Assembly: GCA_041697335.1 (NCBI GenBank)
Contig: JBGUGD010000018.1
Span: forward strand, 1 to 28,930
Direction: 5' to 3'
DNA length: 28,930 bases
Source of the DNA: Vampirovibrionaceae bacterium NZW_1234
GTDB lineage: Bacteria; Cyanobacteriota; Vampirovibrionia; Vampirovibrionales; JAGQHJ01
Both the position numbers and the translations under genes were made by a program. A model generated the notes under the pieces. It did not search any database. It was not told the origin of the DNA and was given only the letters and a program-made list of their open reading frames with translations. This document shows, in pieces, positions 4,901-28,692 of the stretch; within the stretch, counting starts at the first letter, position 1; each line of letters opens with the position of its first letter.

Positions 4901-6811
4901 ATGTCGACGTTAGGTAACATTTTAAACCTATCTCTACGCCAAAACGTAGACTCACCGTTTCTGGACTCCCTTACGGGAGTGGGTCCGCCTTCGGATTGGC
5001 TGCTGTCTGTTGCCTCTCTGGATTGGCGCAATCCTTCGAATGCTGATTTTTCACAAGATGCCTTTGATTTTCGAGGTTCTTCTTTGGATCCCAGCTGGTC
5101 ACCGCCGATGGGGCCCAACCCGCGATTTGAGCAAAATCGAGGTGTGTCAATGGCTTCCCCGGGATGGAACGCATTCAGAGCCAATGGTTCCAGTGGAAGC
5201 TTCCTGTCGAATCTGCTGGCTCCTTTGGATAACCTGCCCAATCCCAATGGGCGGGTGATGTCTCCCAATATGGATTTTCGTCCGGGTGCGGATCCGGCCC
5301 CATCTGTCTTGAACGGGGCGCTGGGATTTACAGTCCCAGTAGGAACACCCACAAGGTTGGTTTTGGGTTCGGGAATACAACCCGATCGGTCCATGATGGG
5401 TCTTGCATGGCAATCTCCCACCCTACAGAGTATCGGGAGTCCCCTACAGTCGTTATGGAGCCCTCGTGGGGCCGGATTGATGAATGGCCCTGCACAGGGG
5501 GGGATGCCCCTGGCGAGAACCACCGGAAGCCTGAGCCCTTTTACTGACGTCGGTGTGCCTCAGCCGTCACACGCCCGACGAGAGCCCTCCCCATGGTCAT
5601 GGCGCTTTGAACCGGATGCATCCGCTATCATTCTGGCTTTGGCCTTCAAGGCGAAGAAGAAACAAGAGTCTGCCTCTCTGAGCGAGAGTGGGGCAACCGA
5701 CCTGAAACTTCCCTCCAACAGTACGGGCCGGTCCGGTGAGGGACCCTCGGCAAAGGAAACCGTCTCCTCAGTGAGCACCACCTCTCAGACCCTGACCACT
5801 GCGGAAAGTACCCCGGATCTTTCCACGAAAAGCCAGGCCACCCCAGAGACCAAGACGACAACGAAAATGGTTCAGCTGACCGCGACCACACAGGACCCAA
5901 AAGAAGATGAGAAGACTGAGAAAGCGAAGGCCGATTCGGTTCAAAAGCCGGTAGAATTGCCACCGATGGCAGTCGGCTTGCGGACGGCACCGGAGACCAA
6001 GGAGACCACTTCGTCGAAAGAGGCCACCCCAAGTGTCACCCCTGTCAATCAAAAGCCGATGGAGGTCACTCCTCCCATGGCTGTCGGTTTGATTGCTTTG
6101 CCCACAACCCCCACGGTTCAAGACCCGTCTGCCACAGAGGACGTGCACCACACCTCCTCCCAAGACCGGCAACGGATCCAAGGAACCGTTTACCGATCCG
6201 TGGAGCAGGGCGGGTGGTTAGTCCGGGATGCTCGAACCCGACAGGAATTTCTTCTGGTATTTGATGAGGCCATGCCCCGTCCCTCCTGGCTAAATGATGG
6301 GGTCGAGGTCGAGGTTCTCGGTCAGCCCCGCCCGAATATGCCCACAGTGTATATGCTGGGCACACCCCTGGTGGTGGACGACATCCAGCTGATCCGCACT
6401 CCCACCCAACCCCGAGGCGACTACGATACCGATGCTGTTCTGAGTGTTATTTCCCGAGCGTCGGGGCGCACGGCAGCCAACCCCTCGGTGACCCGAGAAC
6501 AGCTACAACGCTTCTTGCGAAATGCGATGCGAGGATCTCCCGATGCGCAGATCGCTGCCATGCTCCTGGAGAACTTTGACACCCTGATGTCTCCCTATCG
6601 CTATGGCTACCTGGCGGAGCAGGGGGTGGTTCAAGTGAACGTGAACGGGCAACAGTCTGAGTCCTCTTACCAGGAACGGTATTACTATGGTGAAACCTAT
6701 TATAACGGGGCTTTGGATGCCCGGACGATTCAGAGAGTCGCATCCTTGGATGGCAACGGTAAAACCTTCAGTGCGAATGATTTGGGGCGTCTTCGAAAAA
6801 TGCAAGCTTGA
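4901..6811 (+). CDS. Hypothetical, largely disordered protein with a DUF5818/OB-fold-like domain and an EF-hand-like C-terminus
   Basis: 636-aa ORF: P/G/S/M-rich N-terminus, T/S/P/E/K linker with duplicated QKP.E..PPMAVGL, a GTVYRSVEQGGWLV...GVEVEVLG..RPNMPT.YM.GTPL.V domain, and terminal DGNGKTFSANDL. Confidence 0.7.
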   Translation: MSTLGNILNLSLRQNVDSPFLDSLTGVGPPSDWLLSVASLDWRNPSNADFSQDAFDFRGSSLDPSWSPPMGPNPRFEQNRGVSMASPGWNAFRANGSSGSFLSNLLAPLDNLPNPNGRVMSPNMDFRPGADPAPSVLNGALGFTVPVGTPTRLVLGSGIQPDRSMMGLAWQSPTLQSIGSPLQSLWSPRGAGLMNGPAQGGMPLARTTGSLSPFTDVGVPQPSHARREPSPWSWRFEPDASAIILALAFKAKKKQESASLSESGATDLKLPSNSTGRSGEGPSAKETVSSVSTTSQTLTTAESTPDLSTKSQATPETKTTTKMVQLTATTQDPKEDEKTEKAKADSVQKPVELPPMAVGLRTAPETKETTSSKEATPSVTPVNQKPMEVTPPMAVGLIALPTTPTVQDPSATEDVHHTSSQDRQRIQGTVYRSVEQGGWLVRDARTRQEFLLVFDEAMPRPSWLNDGVEVEVLGQPRPNMPTVYMLGTPLVVDDIQLIRTPTQPRGDYDTDAVLSVISRASGRTAANPSVTREQLQRFLRNAMRGSPDAQIAAMLLENFDTLMSPYRYGYLAEQGVVQVNVNGQQSESSYQERYYYGETYYNGALDARTIQRVASLDGNGKTFSANDLGRLRKMQA

Positions 6812-14408: not shown

Positions 14409-15158
14409 TTAGTCGATCGGAAAATCAAAATACGTACTGGGGAAGGGCTCGTTCTCTAAGGTGTAATGCCACCACTCCTGAGGCAGATTTTTAAACCCAT
14501 GGTGTTGCATTATGGTTTTCAGCAAAGCCCGGTTGGCTTTGATTATGGGAGGGAGTTCCGTGGTATCGGTATGGGCCAGGGGATCAAAGCAATCAAAGGA
14601 CGTCCCCATGTCCAGGCTGTTGTCGGGAATAGGATAATGGCGGCTCCGGCAATCCCGAGGCACGGTTTCGGAAGGATCTGGGAGAAAGGGCTTTGGATAG
14701 GGTACCAGGGTTAGATCGATCGTACTGCCGCGACTGTGCCCGGAACGTTCGGCAATATAGCCTTCCTTGAACAAATCACCTTTGGCGACTCGGGGATAGA
14801 ACCCTGCCAATCCTGTTGTGTCGGAAGCCGCCCAGGCAACAAAGTCCAGAACGGCGCGTTTTGGACGGTAACAGTCATACACTTTCAAACCTAATCCAAG
14901 ACTTTGCAATTCCTGTTGGGCATCTGCCAGGGCTTGGGCTGCAGGTCGAGTGAGAATACAAATGGGACGAGTATAGCCCTCAATGGGGCGACCCACAAAA
15001 TTATGTGCCGAGCTATAGCGCATGTCGATGAGAATAGATGGTGCAATTGACTCCAGATTGACGAATTCCGGCGGCCGCTGTGCCTTGGCAGCAAGAGGTG
15101 CGAGCAGCAAAATCAGAATAAACATACTGATGAAGCGCGGCATCTGTGAGGTTCGCAT
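14409..15158 (-). CDS. ddpX: D-Ala-D-Ala dipeptidase (M15D, VanX/DdpX family) with signal peptide
   Basis: YDCYRP, SGHSRGSTIDLT (SxHxxGxxxD), DMGTSFD, EWWHY; N-terminal MPRFISMFILILLLAPLAAKA. Confidence 0.92.
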   Translation of the reverse strand: MRTSQMPRFISMFILILLLAPLAAKAQRPPEFVNLESIAPSILIDMRYSSAHNFVGRPIEGYTRPICILTRPAAQALADAQQELQSLGLGLKVYDCYRPKRAVLDFVAWAASDTTGLAGFYPRVAKGDLFKEGYIAERSGHSRGSTIDLTLVPYPKPFLPDPSETVPRDCRSRHYPIPDNSLDMGTSFDCFDPLAHTDTTELPPIIKANRALLKTIMQHHGFKNLPQEWWHYTLENEPFPSTYFDFPID

Positions 15159-18335: not shown

Positions 18336-19202
18336 ATGCAGTACAAATGGGAACCTATGGTGAGCTTGAAATCCCTCGGCAAATGCACCGACGAGGGTAA
18401 GGCGGAATTGTATGAAGCCTGGGAGCAAATGCGTGACTTAACGGTTTCGAGCCCTTCTATTGCAGGCAGTGGTATGCAGAAACCCGGCGGGTTTTGGTTC
18501 AAGTTGTCTCAAATGCTTAGTGGAACCGGCTTCTTACCGGCCCTGGGGAATCATTCAATTCAGATACCGGGAACCTCCTATGCGGATCCCATCTCGGGCG
18601 GGACGGGTTTGGCACCAGGCGGACAAGCTCCGTTTGGTTTAGGGCCGTTTTCGCAGTTTAGCGGTTTTCCGACGGGAGGGGCCGCTGGATTGGATACGTC
18701 CTCCATCTTCGCGAGTATGGGAATCGGAAATGCCGGCCTGGGTGTTCTTGGCATTGGCGATCCGGCTTATCCGATGGCTTTTGGCACTATTGGCGGGGCT
18801 GCTGCACCCATGGGAACGGGGACCTCATTGGGCGATCCGGGGCAGGCGCCATCATCTTTAGTGGGGGCATCAGGTTTTGGCCGAAACAAGATATTACCGG
18901 CCATGGGAATTTTGAGTGGCATTGGCAGTATTATGACGAACGTGGCTCCCTTGATGGGGACCTTCGGGATGGCTGGACTCGCAACAGGAGCTGTCCTTCA
19001 GGGCTTGACAGCACCGGTTCTGGCTAAATACGAAAAGGCCAGCAATCGCCTGGTTGTGAGCGCCGATATGGTCCTAGGAACCAAGATTCGCAACATCGAA
19101 ACCGTTGTGAAGCAGATGGAAGCCCAGGAAGATATTATTAAAAAGCTTCTAAAAGAACAGAACGAGACCAATTCCAAAGCTCTACAGGATTTAGGCGGCT
19201 AA
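18336..19202 (+). CDS. Hypothetical Gly-rich protein with a hydrophobic helical segment and C-terminal coiled coil
   Basis: 288-aa ORF: G/A/P/F-rich core, ILPAMGILSGIGSIM...GMAGLATGAVLQGL segment, heptad-like IRNIETVVKQMEAQEDIIKKLLKEQ. Start codon uncertain. Confidence 0.7.
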   Translation: MQYKWEPMVSLKSLGKCTDEGKAELYEAWEQMRDLTVSSPSIAGSGMQKPGGFWFKLSQMLSGTGFLPALGNHSIQIPGTSYADPISGGTGLAPGGQAPFGLGPFSQFSGFPTGGAAGLDTSSIFASMGIGNAGLGVLGIGDPAYPMAFGTIGGAAAPMGTGTSLGDPGQAPSSLVGASGFGRNKILPAMGILSGIGSIMTNVAPLMGTFGMAGLATGAVLQGLTAPVLAKYEKASNRLVVSADMVLGTKIRNIETVVKQMEAQEDIIKKLLKEQNETNSKALQDLGG

Positions 19203-20206: not shown

Positions 20207-21346
20207 TTAAGACCCAAGGCGAGTTAAGTGGGTCTGGGGAAAATAATAGTGGAGAATGGCATCGTATTTTCGCCCTTTTCGGGCTTGTCCGGCAGCACCC
20301 CACTGGCAAAGGCCCACGCCGTGACCGGCGCCTCGGGAATGGATTTCTATATAATCCATGCCCTTGGCGTGAATGTCGAATTTTGTCCCGGGTGCTTTGT
20401 CCCAGCCAAACTTCTGACCCAGGCGCATCCAGAAGGCGTAGCTCCGTGTGGGGGCGGCGTTGCCCATGGAAATCCAGAGAGGCCGATGGCCATCATCCCA
20501 CGCTGTGATTTGGGGGAGCTTGGGGCCGAAGCTCTGGAAAAACAGCGGACGAGGGATCTGCGTCACGGTCGTGCTCCAAAAGGGCGAAGCTTTGCAATAA
20601 TCACACTTTACGGCGGTAAGGTAAGGTGTATGATGACCAGAGAAGAAACTGCCGGAACTGGTGTGGCCGGCACATGTACTGTGGTAAAGGGCTGAAATGG
20701 GACGGCCTTCATAAGTGAGCACCTGATTCCAGACAGACAAGACGGCTTTCTGGACCTCTGGGCGAAGTGGCCCCATGCCTAAAAACGATTCATCCTGGGT
20801 AGTGTCACTTAAAGGGGTATTGAGTTTCATTTTCGCCAGTCGGCTTTGGGTTAACACCGCCTGTGCTTTCAAGGCTTCGAGGGGCCAACCGGGGGGCGTT
20901 TCACTGCTGACAACGCTACTGACATAGAGGGGAGTGTTCAGTGTGTTTGTAATGACCAGTTGACGCTTTGTGTCCCGATGTATCGCCAATCTGCCATAAT
21001 AGCGGCGAGGCGCTCCGCCAGGCAAACTCAGTCTGAGACCATCTTCAGGCCCTGTATTCAGAACCAGCCGGGTGTAAGTGGCAGATTTTGCGGACAGGGC
21101 CTGACTTGGCTTCAAGCGAAGTCGGTCTTGATGAGGCGCAATCGTATAGCGGCCACATCGCCTAGTGATTGTGTGGTGCGGGTTGGCCAAGGTGAAGCAT
21201 CCATCAAGGATAAGGCTGGAGACCGAAGGCTGAGCCTCAAAGAGACGCACCGTAATCTCAGGGGGCAGTGCTCCCCAGACAATTCCAGACATCTGTGAAA
21301 GCAATACAAGGGCTGTAGCCGGAAGCCAAAGCATAGAGCGTCTCAT
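20207..21346 (-). CDS. SpoIID/LytB domain protein (putative lytic transglycosylase), exported
   Basis: RRYYGRL, YVSSVVSSETPPGWPLEALKAQAV, YHSTCAGHT, GAGHGVGLCQWGA, ILHYYFP. Signal peptide from ATG 21346, which overlaps the upstream gene's TGA (ATGA). Confidence 0.9.
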   Translation of the reverse strand: MRRSMLWLPATALVLLSQMSGIVWGALPPEITVRLFEAQPSVSSLILDGCFTLANPHHTITRRCGRYTIAPHQDRLRLKPSQALSAKSATYTRLVLNTGPEDGLRLSLPGGAPRRYYGRLAIHRDTKRQLVITNTLNTPLYVSSVVSSETPPGWPLEALKAQAVLTQSRLAKMKLNTPLSDTTQDESFLGMGPLRPEVQKAVLSVWNQVLTYEGRPISALYHSTCAGHTSSGSFFSGHHTPYLTAVKCDYCKASPFWSTTVTQIPRPLFFQSFGPKLPQITAWDDGHRPLWISMGNAAPTRSYAFWMRLGQKFGWDKAPGTKFDIHAKGMDYIEIHSRGAGHGVGLCQWGAAGQARKGRKYDAILHYYFPQTHLTRLGS

Positions 21347-22260
21347 AAAGAAAAATCCCACGAGCGAGAGTGTAAGGCTTGGCGCAATAGAGGGACAGCC
21401 TGATCCTGGCTGGTCCCCTGGGGGGCCCGAAGGCAAATGGCGTATCGGGGCTGGTGATAGGGGAAAAAACCCGAGATCCAGGATTGATAGCGATACCCAT
21501 GGTTTGTCGTACCGGTCTTAATGGCCAAGTGGAAATGATTCTTCGGATCCAGATGCTTACCAGTGCCCGAACGAGAGGCCAGATGCATGCCATTTGCCAG
21601 GAATCCCCAGGTCTCAGGGTGGATGACAGGGCTGTCAGAAGGAACCTGCCAGTGAGGGAGTTTTCCCTGGGTAGCAATCAGGCCGCTGAGGCGGAGCAAC
21701 TGGAACAGCGAGGATTGTAAATCGGGGGCAAGGCCGAGGATATAGTCCTGAACGGGTGATTGGGGGTGCTGAGGAAAAGCCCAAGGAAGATCGGGCAGAT
21801 TGGCTTGACGGGTTGGTGAGGCCAAGCCCAAGGCGCGTGCAAAACGCAGGAGTTCATGGATGTGAATAAGCGGTGTCAAATGAGCAAAGTAGCCATTGCA
21901 CGACTGGCCGAGCGCCTGAATAAGGGTAACTCGCCCATGAGGGGCTGAGCAGCGATACACATGGTTCTGAATCCGGAAGATTCCGGTGCATTCAAATTCC
22001 TTGTCGGGAGAAATCAGATGATGTTCAAGGACCATGGCCGTTGTGACGAGTTTCATCAGCGATCCGGGGGGACCGCTGGGGGGTATTGAGCCCGGATGAA
22101 ATAGGATGTTCGAAGTGTGTAAGTCCATCCATGCCCAGGGGACTTTTACGGGTGCAGGTTTTCCCAGGCTGGGCTCGGATAATACCCATGGCAACAGAAG
22201 AAGGCCCTTTACAAAGGCTCTTCGTGACAGTTGTGGTAACGGTAACAAATCGCAATCCAA
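21343..22260 (-). CDS. Penicillin-binding protein, transpeptidase domain only, with twin-arginine signal
   Basis: SxxK (PGSLMK), SxN (QSCNGYF), KTG (IKTGT), plus SWISGFFPY..PRYA typical of class B PBP transpeptidase domains. N-terminal SRRAFVK. TTG start. Confidence 0.85.
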   Translation of the reverse strand: MDCDLLPLPQLSRRAFVKGLLLLPWVLSEPSLGKPAPVKVPWAWMDLHTSNILFHPGSIPPSGPPGSLMKLVTTAMVLEHHLISPDKEFECTGIFRIQNHVYRCSAPHGRVTLIQALGQSCNGYFAHLTPLIHIHELLRFARALGLASPTRQANLPDLPWAFPQHPQSPVQDYILGLAPDLQSSLFQLLRLSGLIATQGKLPHWQVPSDSPVIHPETWGFLANGMHLASRSGTGKHLDPKNHFHLAIKTGTTNHGYRYQSWISGFFPYHQPRYAICLRAPQGTSQDQAVPLLRQALHSRSWDFSL

Positions 22261-22398
22261 TGCGTCAACCTGCTGTGTTTGCTGTATGGTGAAACTCTAA
22301 GAGAGGTTGATGATCATTGTACGGGTAGGATGTTCCTGGTGAAACCTGTTCCTTTTGGGAAGTCGTTTTTACACTCCATGTCACGATGCGTCGTGACC

Positions 22399-22980
22399 AT
22401 GGGATTCTCCTTGGTGCTGCTAGGGCTGATGTTCTCAATTTTCACGATGGCTTCGGCCCAGGCCATGACGACGTTGCCCCAGGTGGTTCGGATGACCATG
22501 GCGCAGTATTTCAGCCCCACACACACGCAGGACTGGAATCGATGGGCGGCGGGTATTCCGGTAAGCCCGATGTATAAGCAGCCCGCGGGTCTCTTTGTGA
22601 CTTTGAGCGTTAACGGCAGATCCCGAGCATGTTGGGGAACCCTCTTTCCCGAGCATGCCAATCAGGTCCAGGCCACCGTATTTAATACCCTGGGTGCCTT
22701 GACCAAGGAGTATCGCTTCCCTCCCATCCGCCCAGACGAATGGGAGCACCTGAAGCCCCAGGTCACTGTGGTTAAAGGCATCGAGCCTGTGTCATCACTG
22801 GCTGCCGTCAACCCCTTGCGTGATGGCTTGATGGTTCGTTCGGGCGGAAAGTCCGGTATTATTCTTCCCGGGGAAGCCCGGAATGCTCATTATCAATTGG
22901 TGCAATGCAAGTTGAAAGCCGGTATCCAGCCCGGGGAACGCTATCAGATCTATAGGATTCGGACCGATGTTTATCGCTAA
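22399..22980 (+). CDS. AMMECR1 domain protein with N-terminal signal peptide
   Basis: GLFVTL...RACWGT (cf. LRGCIG), EYRFPPI.PDE (cf. DPRF.P), GLMVRSGGKSGIILP, KLKAGI. Hydrophobic leader MGFSLVLLGLMFSIFTMASAQA. Start could be 22378 or 22330. Confidence 0.8.
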   Translation: MGFSLVLLGLMFSIFTMASAQAMTTLPQVVRMTMAQYFSPTHTQDWNRWAAGIPVSPMYKQPAGLFVTLSVNGRSRACWGTLFPEHANQVQATVFNTLGALTKEYRFPPIRPDEWEHLKPQVTVVKGIEPVSSLAAVNPLRDGLMVRSGGKSGIILPGEARNAHYQLVQCKLKAGIQPGERYQIYRIRTDVYR

Positions 22981-25900
22981 GCTCAAGCAGTCCTGGACAT
23001 GGGTATTGGCCCTGGCTGCCATGGTGACATTATTGGCCTTTGCAGTTGGGTTGGAACGCCCGGTTGGGGCCCTGGAAGGGCGCATCGCTATTGAGCAGCA
23101 AGGATTTAATCTGGCCAGCTATGACATTCGGGGACAGAAGGTTTATGCCCTGGCCATTGGCCCTCGAGGCGATCGTAACGTCCTGGAACGTGGGGTCTGG
23201 GTCAATCCCGACGGAAGCTTTCGTATTGAACGGCTTCCTGTAGGCGAATATGCCCTACGTGTCAGAGCACCGGGCTTTGCCACCGAGAATAAGTATGGGC
23301 TATATGTGGATGAGGGCCGCATCCATACCGTAGCGCCCATTCGCCTTCACCTGTTGGCTCCGTCGGTGAACTTGGCTTCCAATACCCGGGTTTTTACAAC
23401 CAAAGAGCAGCCGTCGTTCTGGATTAATGCCTCCGGGGCAAACCGAGCGGTGGTGAAACTGTATCGCCGCGACGCCCTACCGATGATTCAAAATTCAGGA
23501 ACACTGGCGGCAAGTCAAAATCTGTATTTCAGTACCAGTTTGAATCTCTACAAGCCCACTGGGGCTATAAATACAGCCTTTATCAATCAGACACCCATTG
23601 AGGTGTTTGAGCGCAAGCTGGAAACCGATTTTGAAGATTGGGCCAGAACGCCTATGAAGCTGGCCAAGCCCTTGCCCGTAGGCGACTACTTCGCCGTGGC
23701 CGAGGTCTATAACTTCCAAAGCCAGCAGGATTGGAATGCCATGTGGTTTTCCGTCACCGATGTGGGCCTGGTCATCAAACATGCCCCGGAAAAAGCGGTG
23801 GTCAGAGCTGTTGACTTGAATACGTTGAAGCCTCGTCCCGGTGTCAATGTCGCGTTATACGCCTCTGACTTTCAGACTCCGGTGGCTCCAGCGGCGCAAA
23901 CGGATGCCAATGGCCTGGTCGAATTCCCCGTGCCGAAAGCCTACGGCGAAAAGAGTTACACAAACTTTCTGGCGGTAGGGACCCATGGCCAAGAGCGGGC
24001 CTATGGTGGAATCTCTTTTTATCGAGCTCATTCAGACAAGTATCGGACTTATTTTTACACCGAGCGCCCTGTATATCGGTTAGGGCAAACCGTGTACTTC
24101 AAAGGCATGGTCCGGGTTCTCGATCCCGATGGTCTGCATTTGCCTGAAGGCAGCCTGCCTGTTCATGTTGCTGTTGAAGACCCGGATGGGACGAAAATCT
24201 GGGAAGGCCCTTTTCAGACCAATGGCCATGGCACCTTTAACGGGACCTTTACGCTTCCCGAGGAAGCCAAGACGGGGGCCTACCAAGTCTCCATGAGGTA
24301 TCCGGACAATACGTATTCCTATGCCTGGTTTGAGGTGGCCCAATACCGTAAACCCGAGTATCAGGTGGAGGTCATTCCTATACAGTCCCGAGCTGTGGTG
24401 GGTGACACGGTCAAAGCGCGGGTTCGGGCCACGTATTATTTTGGTGCTCCCGTGACCCATGCCAAAGTCCACTACTCCGTCTATGAATCGGTGGATTGGG
24501 CGGGTCGTTCTCGATTGATGAATCGCCCCGAGTATGAATCCTACTATGATTCCTGGGATCCGGATATGGACTCCGGTTCCTATGACGGCGATCTGGTTAC
24601 TGAGGGTTATATCCAGACCGATGAAAATGGCGAGGCCATTGTTGAATTCAGGACCCACCCGCCACAAAAACCAGCCAATGGGCCCTATGGGACTGATTTT
24701 TATGACAAACGCTACAAAATCCAGGCCGATGTCACCGACTTGAGCCGTATGACGGTTGTGGGAAGCGGAACATTACCTGTGTCCATGGCCAATTTTGCGG
24801 TTTTTATCAAGCCGAGTTCCGAAGTGGTCCGTCAAGGCGAAGCCATTTCTGCCGATGTGATGGCCGTCGATTATGAGGGCAGGCCTGTAGCCAACCAAAC
24901 CATTGACGTGAGCCTGGTCCGTTGGATATGGGATATCCGGCGGGGGGAATATCGTAGCAAGCAGGTTCCGCAGACGGCCTCCGTCAAAACCGATGAAAGT
25001 GGCAAGGCCCACCTGACCCTGCAAACCGATTCGGCTGGTATGACCGACGTCTACTACCTGACGGCAGTTGCTCAGGATCAAAAAGGGCGGCCGGTGTTTG
25101 ACGAACATTCGGTCTGGATTGCCAGCCCCAATCAGCCCTATCTTTTGTCTCCCAAAGAAGCCCAACAGCAAGCCCTTTCCGTGCGCCTCGACAAGTCGGT
25201 TTATCAACCCGGCGAAACTGCCAAGATTATGGTGGCTGCCCCGGTTACAGGTAAAGAGGGAACCCAGGCCCTGTTAGCCATTGAGGGTACCCGCTTGCAT
25301 GAGTATCGGTTAATCGACCTGGATGCTTCGGCCAAATTGGTGGAAGTTCCTTTAAAGGCCGAGTATGAGCCCAATGTCAATGTCACGGTAACCTATGTGG
25401 GCCAGAAACATCAGTTTTATACCCAGTCTCACATGATTAAAGTAACGCCCCACAAGCACTTTCTCCAGCTTGCAGTCCAAACGGACAAACCCAAGTATCA
25501 TCCCGGGGACGAGGTGACCTTGCGTGTGCATGCACAATATCCGGACGGCAAACCAGCGGCAAAGACCGAGCTTTCGATTGGTGTAGTGGATGAGAGCATC
25601 TATGCCATTCGGGCTGATCAGAGCGAGAATATTCAGCAATTCTTTTACGATGAGCGCGCAAATTGGGTGACGACAACCAGCTCATTCCCGGAAGAATATT
25701 CCGGCGGGCCGGATAAGATTGAGCCCCGCATGCGCAAGGACTTCCGGGATGTTGCTGCCTGGTTCCCCACGGCCATGACCGATGAGAACGGAGATGCCAT
25801 AGTGACATTCAGGGTTCCGGATAACCTGACCACCTGGCGAGCCACGGTCCGTGGTATTACTCAGGCTACCGATGTCGGCTCGGCCATTGGGAGCTTCATC

Positions 25901-27958
25901 GCAACCCAGGATCTGATTGTTCGTCTGGCCTTGCCCCGCTTCTTCACGCAGTGGGATGAAGGCGTCGTGACCGCCATTGTTCATAACTACACGGAGCATC
26001 CTCAGGACATTCAAGTGGCGCTCTCCATGCCGTCCCTGCTTACGACCAAACATCGCCTGGTACAAACCCTGAATGTGAAGCCCGAAGGTGCTCAGCGAAT
26101 TACATGGCCGGTTTCAGTCCAGACACCTGGGCAGGCTACGTTTCAGGTCAAGGCCATCGGGCAGACCGCCGGAGATGCCTTGGAGAAAACCATTCCGATT
26201 TTGCCGTTGGGGATGCCTGTTGAGAAGATCCAGAGCGGTACAATGACCCTGGACGCCACTTCTGTGTCTCTCCCGGTAACTTTACCTCCAGGGGTGGCCA
26301 TGGAAACCGTCAGGTACCATATTGCTTTGGCGGCGTCGACCCTGGGGCCCGTTATTGGGAGCTTTGATGCACTCATTGATTATCCTTACGGTTGTACAGA
26401 GCAGACCATGAGTCGGCTAATACCATCCATTCTGGCTATCCGACTAAATCAAACCTTGAATGTGCCTTTAAGCGATTCGGCCCGGGCCCGTTTTGAGGAC
26501 GTGTATCGTAAGGGCATAGCCCGCCTCCGTGAGATGCATCATGGTGACGGTGGCTGGGGCTGGTGGGAATTTGATGAAAGCCAGGCTCAGATGACGGCCT
26601 ATGTTCTCGAAGGGCTGATGATGCTTCGCCAGGCTGGCTATGCGGTTGACGATGATCTGGTGTCATCCGGTCGGGAGTGGCTTCGAAAGGCGATGCCGGA
26701 ATTGCAGAGGCAACTGTCTGATCCCAAGCTGGCCAAGGAAGGGGTGGCGGATGCCCGGATTGATTTGGCGATGATGGCCCATGCTGCAAGCCTTCATGGA
26801 GATAAGGTTTCCGATAAGCTCTCGTCTTGGGCGAAATCCCGCGTCTCCTCGGCATCACCCGAAGAACTCGCGTACTGGGCATTGGCCTTCCACAAGGCGA
26901 ATCAATCTGCCTTGGCCAAACTGGCGCTATCGGAACTGATGAGTCTGGCGCATCAAAGCGGGGAATTGATGGATTGGGACAATACACCCCAGATGAGGCG
27001 CCGTTTAGAGCAACGTCAGCAGGAATATACCTATCGATTTACCGGTGTCGAGCGAACCGCGCTGGCCCTCAGGGCTTTGTTGGCGGTTAGTCCGGATAAT
27101 ACGGGTGCCATTGAAGCCACTCGACGTTGGTTATTGACGCAACGGGGCAAGGATGGCTGGGATAACACGAAAACCACCTCCCAGGTCCTTCAGGCCTTAA
27201 TGGCGGAAGCCATTCACACGGGTGGTTCGGCCAAACCCGAGTTTCTGGCGACACTTCGTTTAATGAATGACGTTCTGGCCGAGCAATCGTTTAATGCGGC
27301 CAATGCCTATGGCCCCGAAATTCTCTTCAAGCCCAATCTGGCCCAGATTGTAGGGCAGGAGCTAACCCTGCTGAAGGAAGGTATTGGGCGTTTGTTCTAT
27401 GCCAGTGTGCTCAGTTATATGCACCCACTCAAGCCTGGCGATACGGTGAAGGAACCATCCCGGCCGGAAGGCTTGCGCATCTATCGGGAGTTCTTCCGTC
27501 TTGAAGCTCAAGCGATGACCAGTGACGGTAAGATTCATTTTCGCACCAAACCCTTGGGCAACCAGGCGCTTAAAGCCGGGGAAACGGTGTTGATGAAGGT
27601 CTTTATCGAATCCCCTATCACCTTGCCCTATATTCTGTTGGAAGCAGCCTTGCCCAGTGGGGGTGAGGTCATCATGAACGATCCCCGGTTGAACACTCTG
27701 GATGAGGAGCAATCCCCCGAAGCGGATTCCGATATTACCGGCGATTGGGGGACCTGGTGGTGGGAACACCAGGATGTCCTTGATGATCGGGTGGTGTTCT
27801 TTGCAACACAACTCCCTGCAGGCAAGACCAGTTTCCACACCATGATTCGCATGGAGATGCCGGGTACGTTTCAGATGAATCCGGCTCGTCTGGAAGGGAT
27901 GTACACACGAAACATCCGTGCTTACTCTGACCTGAATCACCTTCGGGTTACCGAGTAG
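22967..27958 (+). CDS. Bacterial alpha-2-macroglobulin family protein with thioester motif
   Basis: MG2 motif YTERPVYRLGQTVYF, YYFGAPV, LDKSVYQPGE, VVDESIY, RKDF...AWFP, PDNLTTWR, thioester YPYGCTEQ (CTEQ at 26393-26404), DGGWGWW, C-terminal PA.LEGMY. Overlaps the upstream gene by 14 nt. Confidence 0.95.
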   Translation: MFIAKLKQSWTWVLALAAMVTLLAFAVGLERPVGALEGRIAIEQQGFNLASYDIRGQKVYALAIGPRGDRNVLERGVWVNPDGSFRIERLPVGEYALRVRAPGFATENKYGLYVDEGRIHTVAPIRLHLLAPSVNLASNTRVFTTKEQPSFWINASGANRAVVKLYRRDALPMIQNSGTLAASQNLYFSTSLNLYKPTGAINTAFINQTPIEVFERKLETDFEDWARTPMKLAKPLPVGDYFAVAEVYNFQSQQDWNAMWFSVTDVGLVIKHAPEKAVVRAVDLNTLKPRPGVNVALYASDFQTPVAPAAQTDANGLVEFPVPKAYGEKSYTNFLAVGTHGQERAYGGISFYRAHSDKYRTYFYTERPVYRLGQTVYFKGMVRVLDPDGLHLPEGSLPVHVAVEDPDGTKIWEGPFQTNGHGTFNGTFTLPEEAKTGAYQVSMRYPDNTYSYAWFEVAQYRKPEYQVEVIPIQSRAVVGDTVKARVRATYYFGAPVTHAKVHYSVYESVDWAGRSRLMNRPEYESYYDSWDPDMDSGSYDGDLVTEGYIQTDENGEAIVEFRTHPPQKPANGPYGTDFYDKRYKIQADVTDLSRMTVVGSGTLPVSMANFAVFIKPSSEVVRQGEAISADVMAVDYEGRPVANQTIDVSLVRWIWDIRRGEYRSKQVPQTASVKTDESGKAHLTLQTDSAGMTDVYYLTAVAQDQKGRPVFDEHSVWIASPNQPYLLSPKEAQQQALSVRLDKSVYQPGETAKIMVAAPVTGKEGTQALLAIEGTRLHEYRLIDLDASAKLVEVPLKAEYEPNVNVTVTYVGQKHQFYTQSHMIKVTPHKHFLQLAVQTDKPKYHPGDEVTLRVHAQYPDGKPAAKTELSIGVVDESIYAIRADQSENIQQFFYDERANWVTTTSSFPEEYSGGPDKIEPRMRKDFRDVAAWFPTAMTDENGDAIVTFRVPDNLTTWRATVRGITQATDVGSAIGSFIATQDLIVRLALPRFFTQWDEGVVTAIVHNYTEHPQDIQVALSMPSLLTTKHRLVQTLNVKPEGAQRITWPVSVQTPGQATFQVKAIGQTAGDALEKTIPILPLGMPVEKIQSGTMTLDATSVSLPVTLPPGVAMETVRYHIALAASTLGPVIGSFDALIDYPYGCTEQTMSRLIPSILAIRLNQTLNVPLSDSARARFEDVYRKGIARLREMHHGDGGWGWWEFDESQAQMTAYVLEGLMMLRQAGYAVDDDLVSSGREWLRKAMPELQRQLSDPKLAKEGVADARIDLAMMAHAASLHGDKVSDKLSSWAKSRVSSASPEELAYWALAFHKANQSALAKLALSELMSLAHQSGELMDWDNTPQMRRRLEQRQQEYTYRFTGVERTALALRALLAVSPDNTGAIEATRRWLLTQRGKDGWDNTKTTSQVLQALMAEAIHTGGSAKPEFLATLRLMNDVLAEQSFNAANAYGPEILFKPNLAQIVGQELTLLKEGIGRLFYASVLSYMHPLKPGDTVKEPSRPEGLRIYREFFRLEAQAMTSDGKIHFRTKPLGNQALKAGETVLMKVFIESPITLPYILLEAALPSGGEVIMNDPRLNTLDEEQSPEADSDITGDWGTWWWEHQDVLDDRVVFFATQLPAGKTSFHTMIRMEMPGTFQMNPARLEGMYTRNIRAYSDLNHLRVTE

Positions 27959-27975: not shown

Positions 27976-28692
27976 ATGGTCCGGCTTTCAGTGTTGTTCT
28001 GGCTTGGTCTTCCCGTGGCCCTCAGTGTCCTGTTGTTTTTCGGGCAGCCCTTTTCCCGGCCGGTGGCCATGAAATCTCTATCCCTTGATCCGTTGACCCC
28101 ATCCCAGCGCCTGAATCTTCAGGAAGCAGCCCAACGTCTGGATGGGGTGGTCTTAGCGCCCCGACAACAATTTTCCTTTAACCGCCAGGTCGGCCCCAGG
28201 ACTCGTCATCGGGGGTTTGCCGCATCGCCCTCCTACGTGGAAGCCGCCAGCCCGGACAGCATTGGTGGTGGAATTTGCATCCTATCTTCTCTTCTTTACC
28301 AGGCGGCTTTGGAGCATGGGATGCGTATTCATCAGCGTGTCCCCCACCTTCGCCCGATGAGAACCATTTTGCCGGGCCTGGACGCCACGGTGTGGTATGG
28401 TCAAGCCGACCTTGTCTTTGAAAACACGACATCCGTCCCCATCCAGCTCAAGACGCAGGTACAGCAGCAAACTTTGTCTGTCGGGTTTGTCGCTCGTCAG
28501 GCTCTCCCTGCTACGCCTGTGACTCGGCGGGCGCATCAGCTGTCGCCGGAGCAACTTCAGGTAACGGTGTTTCGGCGAATTGATGATCGAGATGTGCTGG
28601 TATCCAGAGATTTATACCGCCTGACGTCGCATCGCCATTTTTTGGGTCACCAGCGCGTAAACAGCGACAATAACAATGAGCGCCCCCAGTAG
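27976..28692 (+). CDS. VanW family protein
   Basis: NL..AA.RLDGVVLAPRQQFSFNRQVGPRT...GF, GGGIC.LSS.LY, PGLDATV.YG..DL.FEN. N-terminal anchor; GGAGG RBS. Confidence 0.9.
   Translation: MVRLSVLFWLGLPVALSVLLFFGQPFSRPVAMKSLSLDPLTPSQRLNLQEAAQRLDGVVLAPRQQFSFNRQVGPRTRHRGFAASPSYVEAASPDSIGGGICILSSLLYQAALEHGMRIHQRVPHLRPMRTILPGLDATVWYGQADLVFENTTSVPIQLKTQVQQQTLSVGFVARQALPATPVTRRAHQLSPEQLQVTVFRRIDDRDVLVSRDLYRLTSHRHFLGHQRVNSDNNNERPQ

Follow-up and report, generated by a model that had tools for sequence, protein, structure and literature searches.

AMMECR1 proteins, conserved all the way from archaea to humans, are known as a family of the cell interior. What does a gene of this family do when it encodes a hydrophobic leader and lies directly upstream of an alpha-2-macroglobulin (A2M) gene? 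In canonical AMMECR1 proteins a Cys is placed in a cleft, and RNA-base chemistry has been proposed for it together with radical SAM and dioxygenase-like partners (PMC2034487; also PMC4075521). Catalysis by this Cys is presented there as a proposal, for the canonical family included; the standing guess is chemistry on RNA or small molecules, with radical SAM proteins as partners. We addressed the question in 28,930 nucleotides from Vampirovibrionaceae bacterium NZW_1234 (contig JBGUGD010000018.1), which we call the window, in the rest of the source genome (G000), and in related loci. The features of the window are listed in Table 1.

Table 1. Features of the AMMECR1-macroglobulin locus (positions within the window).
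Feature	Position	Strand	Evidence
AMMECR1 protein of the exported type (export predicted)	22339..22980	+	PF01871 90.3 bits; AF2 model; fold searches; start uncertain: 22339, 22378 or 22399
Predicted Sec signal peptide ending in AQA	22378..22464	+	Hydropathy 2.75; leader in 95/103 close homologues; heuristic only
RACWG motif with putative nucleophilic Cys (22630-22632)	22624..22638	+	R, C, W and G in 120/120 close homologues
EYRF, variant of the DxR-aromatic motif	22708..22719	+	E or D, Y and R in 120/120
LPGEA, which marks the exported branch (Glu invariant)	22864..22878	+	E in 103/103 non-canonical representatives
Alpha-2-macroglobulin (A2M), 1663 aa, N-terminal hydrophobic anchor	22967..27958	+	Pfam MG2, A2M_BRD, A2M, TED, bMG10
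Thioester motif PYGCTEQ, aa 1140-1146 of A2M	26384..26404	+	Cys in 92/93 loci read
Minimal conserved bait SFPEEYSGGPDK, aa 906-917 of A2M	25682..25717	+	Second Gly 73/74, Lys 73/74; low pLDDT, C-half model
VanW-family L,D-transpeptidase homologue, N-terminal membrane anchor	27976..28692	+	PF04294 129.7 bits
Stand-alone SxxK penicillin-binding/transpeptidase-fold protein, 305 aa, twin-arginine leader	21343..22260	-	PF00905 65.5 bits
SpoIID/LytB lytic-transglycosylase homologue, hydrophobic leader	20207..21436	-	PF08486 and TIGR02669 above cut-off

Judged by profile and model, the window protein is a real AMMECR1 family member with the duplicated RAGNYA fold, as a reading of the sequence alone had proposed. 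Its PF01871 score compares with a gathering cut-off of 25 bits, and its sequence matches in the PDB are MM0484 (1zq7, E 1.6e-11) and PH0010 (1vaj). Foldseek aligned the AF2 model (pLDDT 97.0, pTM 0.90) with 1vaj (TM 0.81, E 6e-12) and 1zq7 (E 1.8e-13), and VIA aligned it with 1zq7 over 166 residues (Z 15.1, rmsd 4.5), the next row having a Z of 4.8. Clear structural matches in both searches were confined to AMMECR1 structures. The score against TIGR04335 (AmmeMemoRadiSam system protein A) was 67.8 bits, below the curated cut-off of 99.

The same sequence-only reading had described, in the ORF read from 22399, a hydrophobic leader ending in AQA and the motifs RACWG, EYRF and LPGEA. All are present where it placed them, with the AQA at 22456-22464. 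It considered the motifs altered, and the variant letters are indeed there, but measured against the published signatures RGChG and DxRa (Balaji and Aravind, PMC2034487) the changes are conservative, i.e., G to A, D to E, and W as the hydrophobic residue. In our close-homologue set, the best 120 of 446 homologues at E ≤ 0.001, RxCWG, [ED]YR, and the LPxE Glu show no variation, which bears out that the Arg and Cys of the signature are retained. The named members of this set come from Vampirovibrionales, Obscuribacterales, and other Melainabacteria, the class to which the window would then probably belong as well. The ORF ends at 22980 (+) and offers in-frame starts at 22279 (TTG), 22330, 22339 (GTG), 22378, 22399, and 22465, of which 22339 is the database call (P0001, 213 aa). 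Since the basic n-region of the leader comes only with the upstream starts, the true start probably lies before 22399, at 22339 or 22378. A start at MTTLPQ was rejected because only 2 of the 120 close homologues have a Met at that position. With a leader scored as an 11-residue Kyte-Doolittle mean of at least 1.8, a hydropathy heuristic that is the sole basis of the export prediction, 95 of the 103 sequences whose core is preceded by 15 residues or more (among the best 120 of 446) have a hydrophobic segment, and one of these 95 has a lipobox-like motif. The findings named beforehand as telling against an exported AMMECR1 (no HMM or structural match, homologues devoid of a leader, or the MTTLPQ start) were thus not what we obtained. 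Scans for promoters and terminators gave no signal above chance level, and a plasmid collection gave no match.

To which part of the family does this protein belong? From a 50%-representative search we took the best 150 of 2542 entries and used the 139 rows with a near-complete core. A canonical clade of 32 rows (LRGCIG, DPRF, LLPDLEGV) was recovered with a FastTree support of 0.988, and with 0.905 in a second tree to which three canonical loci had been added. A leader was found in 85 of the 93 non-canonical representatives whose core is preceded by 55 residues or more (107 non-canonical rows in all) vs. none of the 32 canonical ones, a control that is not like for like because most long canonical rows are Memo/LigB-type fusions. 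The Cys is kept in all 103 exported-type representatives (the 107 rows minus four truncated or aberrant ones) and in all 32 canonical ones. Charge differs between the two types, the core being basic in the exported type (median +6), whereas the canonical median is -3. Among sequences derived from loci, 114 of 132 have the leader, and the source labels of the branch include Synechococcales, Armatimonadota, and Bacillota. Judging from trees and predicted leaders, exported-type AMMECR1 is therefore a distinct, leader-bearing branch apart from the canonical clade. The sequence-only reading had raised the question whether signal-bearing RACWG variants form a clade always found beside A2M. The branch is indeed distinct and tied to A2M, but RACWG marks only one of its sub-branches, since members with RGCWG, RGCMG, or RGCYG have the leader and LPxE too, and in a few members (L168, L180, and L183) none of the partners lies within about 10 kb.

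Is the leader really an export signal? It could be something else, or the gene could be a passenger that keeps the canonical cytoplasmic role; export is predicted by hydropathy only, and MagE, which also has a predicted signal peptide, was localized to the cytoplasm (PMC3735191). However, the leader tracks the branch in the counts given above, and a canonical copy accompanies an exported-type copy in five of the five genomes tested, which points to a different job for the latter. In the source genome, which is 94.75% complete, the window gene is the only AMMECR1 gene found, and neither Memo (PF01875) nor the partner radical SAM protein (TIGR04337) was found. Together with the trees and leader counts, these absences uphold the earlier idea of a leader-bearing branch that does without Memo and radical SAM. 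A radical-SAM motif matched none of 134 loci, and it matched only one of three canonical control loci. We regard a cytoplasmic role as the least probable of the explanations considered here. The papers that we found on AMMECR1 combined with macroglobulin, periplasm, or signal peptide, or on macroglobulin combined with VanW or SpoIID, mostly non-subscription, contain neither the exported branch nor the gene set described below, and the exported subfamily is apparently undescribed so far.

In the window, the A2M gene overlaps the end of the AMMECR1 gene by 14 nt and is followed by the VanW gene, and the SxxK and SpoIID genes are divergent from these three. Export signals are predicted on all four partners, including a hydrophobic anchor in 70 of 78 VanW proteins of this type and a twin-arginine motif in 50 of 63 SxxK transpeptidases. 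The three peptidoglycan-enzyme homologues look active, to judge from their intact catalytic motifs. Counting the window protein each time, C101, H124, D136, and D145 of VanW are conserved in 89/89 sequences, S67-x-x-K70, S120, and K248-T-G of the SxxK protein in 77/77, and E179 of SpoIID in 70/70. As for the A2M, the one exception among the 93 thioester loci is a misaligned row, and apparent non-Cys thioester motifs were rejected as pattern artefacts. Its bait is unusual in being short and nearly fixed in length. Between the conserved residues that flank it lie 31-36 aa in 74/74 aligned A2Ms, a span centered on Y-x-G-G-x-x-K, whereas the baits of three A2Ms that lie outside this gene set, in genomes of the same phylum, are long and variable. 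The low pLDDT at the bait runs into a strand motif shared with YfaS and may be partly an effect of the N-terminal half missing from the model.

Other genes of the source genome deserve mention. Three YkuD-type L,D-transpeptidases (LDTs) are encoded elsewhere (contigs C20, C23, and C25), which suggests that generic 3-3 cross-linking does not depend on VanW and that the substrate of VanW may be a dedicated one. A VanX-like D-Ala-D-Ala dipeptidase gene (14409-15158, -) lies about 5 kb from the AMMECR1 locus; it was rejected as a member because no match was found in any of 60 related loci. Two window ORFs have no Pfam match: a 288-aa ORF (18336-19202, +) that has a 50%-identical paralogue on contig C10 and is found in 0/60 related loci, and a 636-aa ORF (4901-6811, +) downstream of a tig-clpP-clpX cluster.

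We wondered how constant this company is. Around the AMMECR1 gene in 60 GTDB loci (tblastn; many contigs short), A2M is directly downstream in 57, and the transpeptidase is present in 52, VanW in 46, and SpoIID in 39, counts that, like all module co-occurrence counts here, are descriptive because the genomes are related and not independent events. The three loci that lack an adjacent A2M come from genomes that have the same A2M type elsewhere. AMMECR1, A2M, and VanW share their distribution over 41 genomes of the order: the same 9 gave matches for all three, and the other 32 for none. Nine genomes also gave the transpeptidase, which is missing in G040 (contig end) and present in G026. The last of these genomes, 99% complete, contains what looks like a decayed module (L213, G026:C15), with an intact SxxK gene and only a C-terminal remnant of SpoIID, and AMMECR1, A2M, and VanW were not found in it. 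In a sample of 301 genomes of the phylum, A2M adjoins 19 of the 20 exported-type AMMECR1 genes examined, the commonest order around them being transpeptidase-SpoIID-AMMECR1-A2M-VanW. When the operon splits, AMMECR1 accompanies A2M-VanW more often than SpoIID, and in four genomes whose locus comprises just AMMECR1-A2M-VanW the transpeptidase-SpoIID pair is kept elsewhere (4/4). In G301, a complete genome that holds the twentieth of these genes, all five genes are kept on a single contig but are scattered (L111, L202, L209-L211), with the minimal bait retained. The module occurs in non-photosynthetic relatives of cyanobacteria, in some cyanobacteria, and, going by record labels, in Armatimonadota and Bacillota.

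Scanning metagenomes with a distant alignment yielded 74 loci, 25-52% identical to its first row, which were picked by the motif LPGEA[RK]T and not by their neighbors. With SpoIID and VanW profiles built on trimmed columns, 56 of the 74 have at least one partner (A2M 35, VanW 32, SpoIID 25, transpeptidase 14), as do 35 of the 38 loci of at least 8 kb. The 74 loci form 42 clusters at 70% identity, 30 of them with a partner, and show gene orders such as A2M-VanW-TP-SpoIID-AMMECR1 and VanW-AMMECR1-A2M-SpoIID-TP. Rearranged or fused versions of the module come back at 25-45% identity. In the cluster of L168, L180, and L183, about 10 kb of surrounding sequence contains none of the partners. These three belong with L173 to an LPGEA-type sub-clade without module partners, in which L168 and L173 lie directly before a TrkA-type potassium channel gene.

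Some of the genes are fused. VanW forms the C terminus of A2M in a single ORF at nine loci of two clusters (L131, L133, L135, and L143-L148, e.g., L144:10587-15629, +), and SpoIID is fused to AMMECR1 with no internal leader in one clear lineage, G095 (L120:9854-11398 (-), P0219). SpoIID and AMMECR1 also share a frame in G113 and G041 (L121 and L122), where the G113 join still has a leader-like stretch. One 594-aa protein, P0240, combines a leader, AMMECR1, an AhpC/TSA redoxin, and a polysaccharide deacetylase. In a family of small genomes, AMMECR1 frames of about 450 aa are found (75/129) and A2M matches are not (0/129); these frames are probably Memo fusions, judged by length, and a search for longer fused AMMECR1 forms gave only two Memo fusions among the matches listed.

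These findings make it highly probable that exported-type AMMECR1 belongs to a module of five proteins, with A2M, VanW, SpoIID, and the SxxK protein, that are kept and lost together. The tie to A2M foreseen by the sequence-only reading is thus real, with adjacency in 57/60 loci, but A2M is one of a set of five genes, three of which encode peptidoglycan-enzyme homologues.

What might AMMECR1 do in this module? We propose that it would act beyond the inner membrane, as a constant component of a module for defence and repair of the envelope, with a thioester macroglobulin at its center. By analogy with relatives, the macroglobulin would trap the protease or the wall-lytic effector of an attacker. 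The damaged wall would be trimmed, cut, and re-cross-linked by the SxxK protein, SpoIID, and the VanW L,D-transpeptidase. The cleft Cys of AMMECR1 would react with a peptidoglycan stem peptide, or with an amide that links a protein to the wall, to give an acyl-enzyme, followed by hydrolysis or transfer. It might, for example, strip stems so that SpoIID, which needs stem-free glycan, can cut, or it might reverse links made by VanW. We give such Cys-dependent acyl chemistry on stems or protein-wall links a probability of roughly 0.4, the most weight of any reading, because the other small partners are wall enzymes, the module has no amidase gene, the AMMECR1 core is basic, and fusions to wall enzymes occur. 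Several points count against it. A reaction of AMMECR1 is demonstrated nowhere in the literature that we found, so that the proposal draws on one conserved Cys and gene context; the leaderless SpoIID fusion is confined to one lineage; one metagenome cluster has no partner nearby; MagC/YfaT, whose gene slot AMMECR1 holds, is described as inactive (PMC10318531); and L,D-transpeptidase activity was reported for only three of the seven non-C. difficile VanW proteins tested (PMC11348318).

The behavior of split operons, which leave AMMECR1 with A2M-VanW over SpoIID, fits a macroglobulin-directed role equally well. AMMECR1 could be a dedicated macroglobulin enzyme that cuts or acylates the YxGGxxK bait, or that forms, protects, or discharges the thioester, a target that the sequence-only reading had suggested; possibly, VanW could then tie the macroglobulin to the wall. 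The tight gene coupling, i.e., overlap or near-adjacency with A2M in nearly all GTDB loci, and the conserved minimal bait bring this explanation close to the wall-chemistry reading, and the A2M-VanW fusions speak for it as well. Nevertheless, we know of no protease-like triad in AMMECR1, which weighs against a bait-cutting enzyme. The E. coli YfhM bait also has a Gly-Gly (RFGGD), yet no AMMECR1 gene is adjacent to it. Since the AMMECR1 Cys and the thioester are kept together in every readable locus, their covariation provides no test, and a complex prediction for mature AMMECR1 with macroglobulin residues 836-1663 only (score 0.00, mark 0.32) is evidence neither way. In related systems, the operon partners are required for the processing of MagD in vivo (PMC3735191, PMC5764988), and LDTs attach proteins to the wall through Lys or an N-terminal Gly-Gly, although such anchoring is described for YkuD-type LDTs, not for VanW (PMC12729407). 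On balance, we consider a dedicated macroglobulin enzyme a real but rather unlikely alternative.

Combining these elements leads to a bolder idea, in which the module would be a covalent wall-anchoring circuit and not a broad protease trap. AMMECR1 would be a cysteine peptidase or transacylase of new fold acting at the Tyr-x-Gly-Gly-x-x-Lys bait, VanW would join peptidoglycan to the Gly-Gly end thus exposed or to the invariant Lys, and the macroglobulin would end up fixed at sites of wall damage. We consider this improbable as a whole. If true, it would give the family, of which human AMMECR1 is a member, its first reaction, and VanW its first role in anchoring proteins.

Alternatively, AMMECR1 might not be an enzyme at all, but a non-catalytic subunit or peptidoglycan-binding adaptor that stabilizes and places the macroglobulin, like MagA/MagF or inactive MagC. 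Mag partners bind MagD 1:1 and stabilize it (PMC5764988), and the product of the gene in the same slot, DUF1175/MagC, is described as an inactive NlpC/P60-like peptidoglycan binder (PMC10318531). The basic core of AMMECR1 would suit such a role. Dead enzymes, however, usually let catalytic-type residues drift, whereas the Cys, both Arg, and the Glu are near-invariant over 25-60% identity. An adaptor thus seems unlikely to us.

A further possibility is a periplasmic thiol-redox or thiol-protecting function, serving the thioester Cys of the macroglobulin and the catalytic Cys of VanW. Two partners do depend on a free Cys, P0240 carries a redoxin domain, and the L182 member lies beside a thioredoxin-like gene. 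These redoxin links are two anecdotes, though, and there is no CxxC motif; a second, resolving Cys in AMMECR1 was rejected because 28 of 103 cores have one Cys only. We therefore regard this function as very unlikely.

Action on RNA is not easy for a branch predicted to be exported and surrounded by wall enzymes. Exported AMMECR1 offers the first concrete candidate substrates for the family: sacculi, muropeptides, one conserved bait peptide, and one thioester.

How does the module compare with known systems? AMMECR1 proteins of known structure (1zq7, 1vaj, and ST0229, 1wsc) share with it the duplicated RAGNYA fold, the RxCxG and [DE]xR motifs, and the cleft Cys (PMC2034487). Unlike canonical AMMECR1 and the AmmeMemoRadiSam protein, the module protein has a predicted signal peptide, LPxEA where those have LLPDLEGV or LLPQV, and a basic instead of an acidic core, and its partners are envelope proteins, not the Memo and radical SAM proteins sought in G000.

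Bacterial A2Ms have been divided into Type I, with a thioester and paired with PBP1c, and Type II, with no thioester and encoded in the six-gene mag/yfa operon (PMC5764988, PMC3735191). Like Type I (E. coli yfhM-pbpC; Salmonella SaA2M), for which trap-and-repair defence has been proposed (PMC5764988), the module couples a thioester A2M with a peptidoglycan enzyme. It differs in that no bifunctional PBP1c is adjacent, the neighbor being the 305-aa protein with a transpeptidase domain only, and in that there are four partners instead of one. Its A2M has no visible lipobox at the N terminus and is about 23% identical to YfhM, and the baits of both YfhM and YfaS from E. coli are longer.

Type II (P. 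aeruginosa magABCDEF; E. coli yfaA-yfaT-yfaS-yfaQ-yfaP) is likewise a multi-gene operon of exported proteins around A2M. The region around the module bait resembles YfaS, a gene of about 200 codons overlaps the A2M start in both systems, and YfaQ of E. coli matches the SxxK profile in its N-terminal part (E 1.8e-10) and the SpoIID profile in its C-terminal part (E 5e-12), so that the two genes correspond to a split YfaQ/MagE. In contrast to Type II, the module A2M keeps the CxEQ thioester and has a minimal bait, and the YfaQ equivalent is two genes. The profiles of the four small module proteins did not match YfaA, YfaT, or YfaP, and Pfam detected none of the YfaA/MagB, YfaT/MagC, and YfaP/MagA/MagF families among the 23 window ORFs. 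AMMECR1 occupies the gene position of yfaT/magC but is unrelated to it, and the parallel is positional only. In the Mag system, MagD protects against some wall-targeting T6SS effectors (PMC12663445).

VanW domains, for their part, have been described as L,D-transpeptidases with a Cys-His-Asp triad in Ldt4 and Ldt5 of C. difficile (PMC11348318), and the corresponding residues are invariant in the module VanW. Unlike Ldt4/Ldt5, the latter is a single domain on a membrane anchor or is fused to the A2M C terminus, and it occurs in diderm lineages where VanW is otherwise scarce.

In our best reading of these comparisons, the locus belongs to neither AmmeMemoRadiSam nor Type I nor Type II and would be most like a thioester-positive relative of the Mag envelope-defence system. 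It looks like a third arrangement of bacterial macroglobulin, in which a Type I thioester is combined with Type II-like partners and a VanW transpeptidase.
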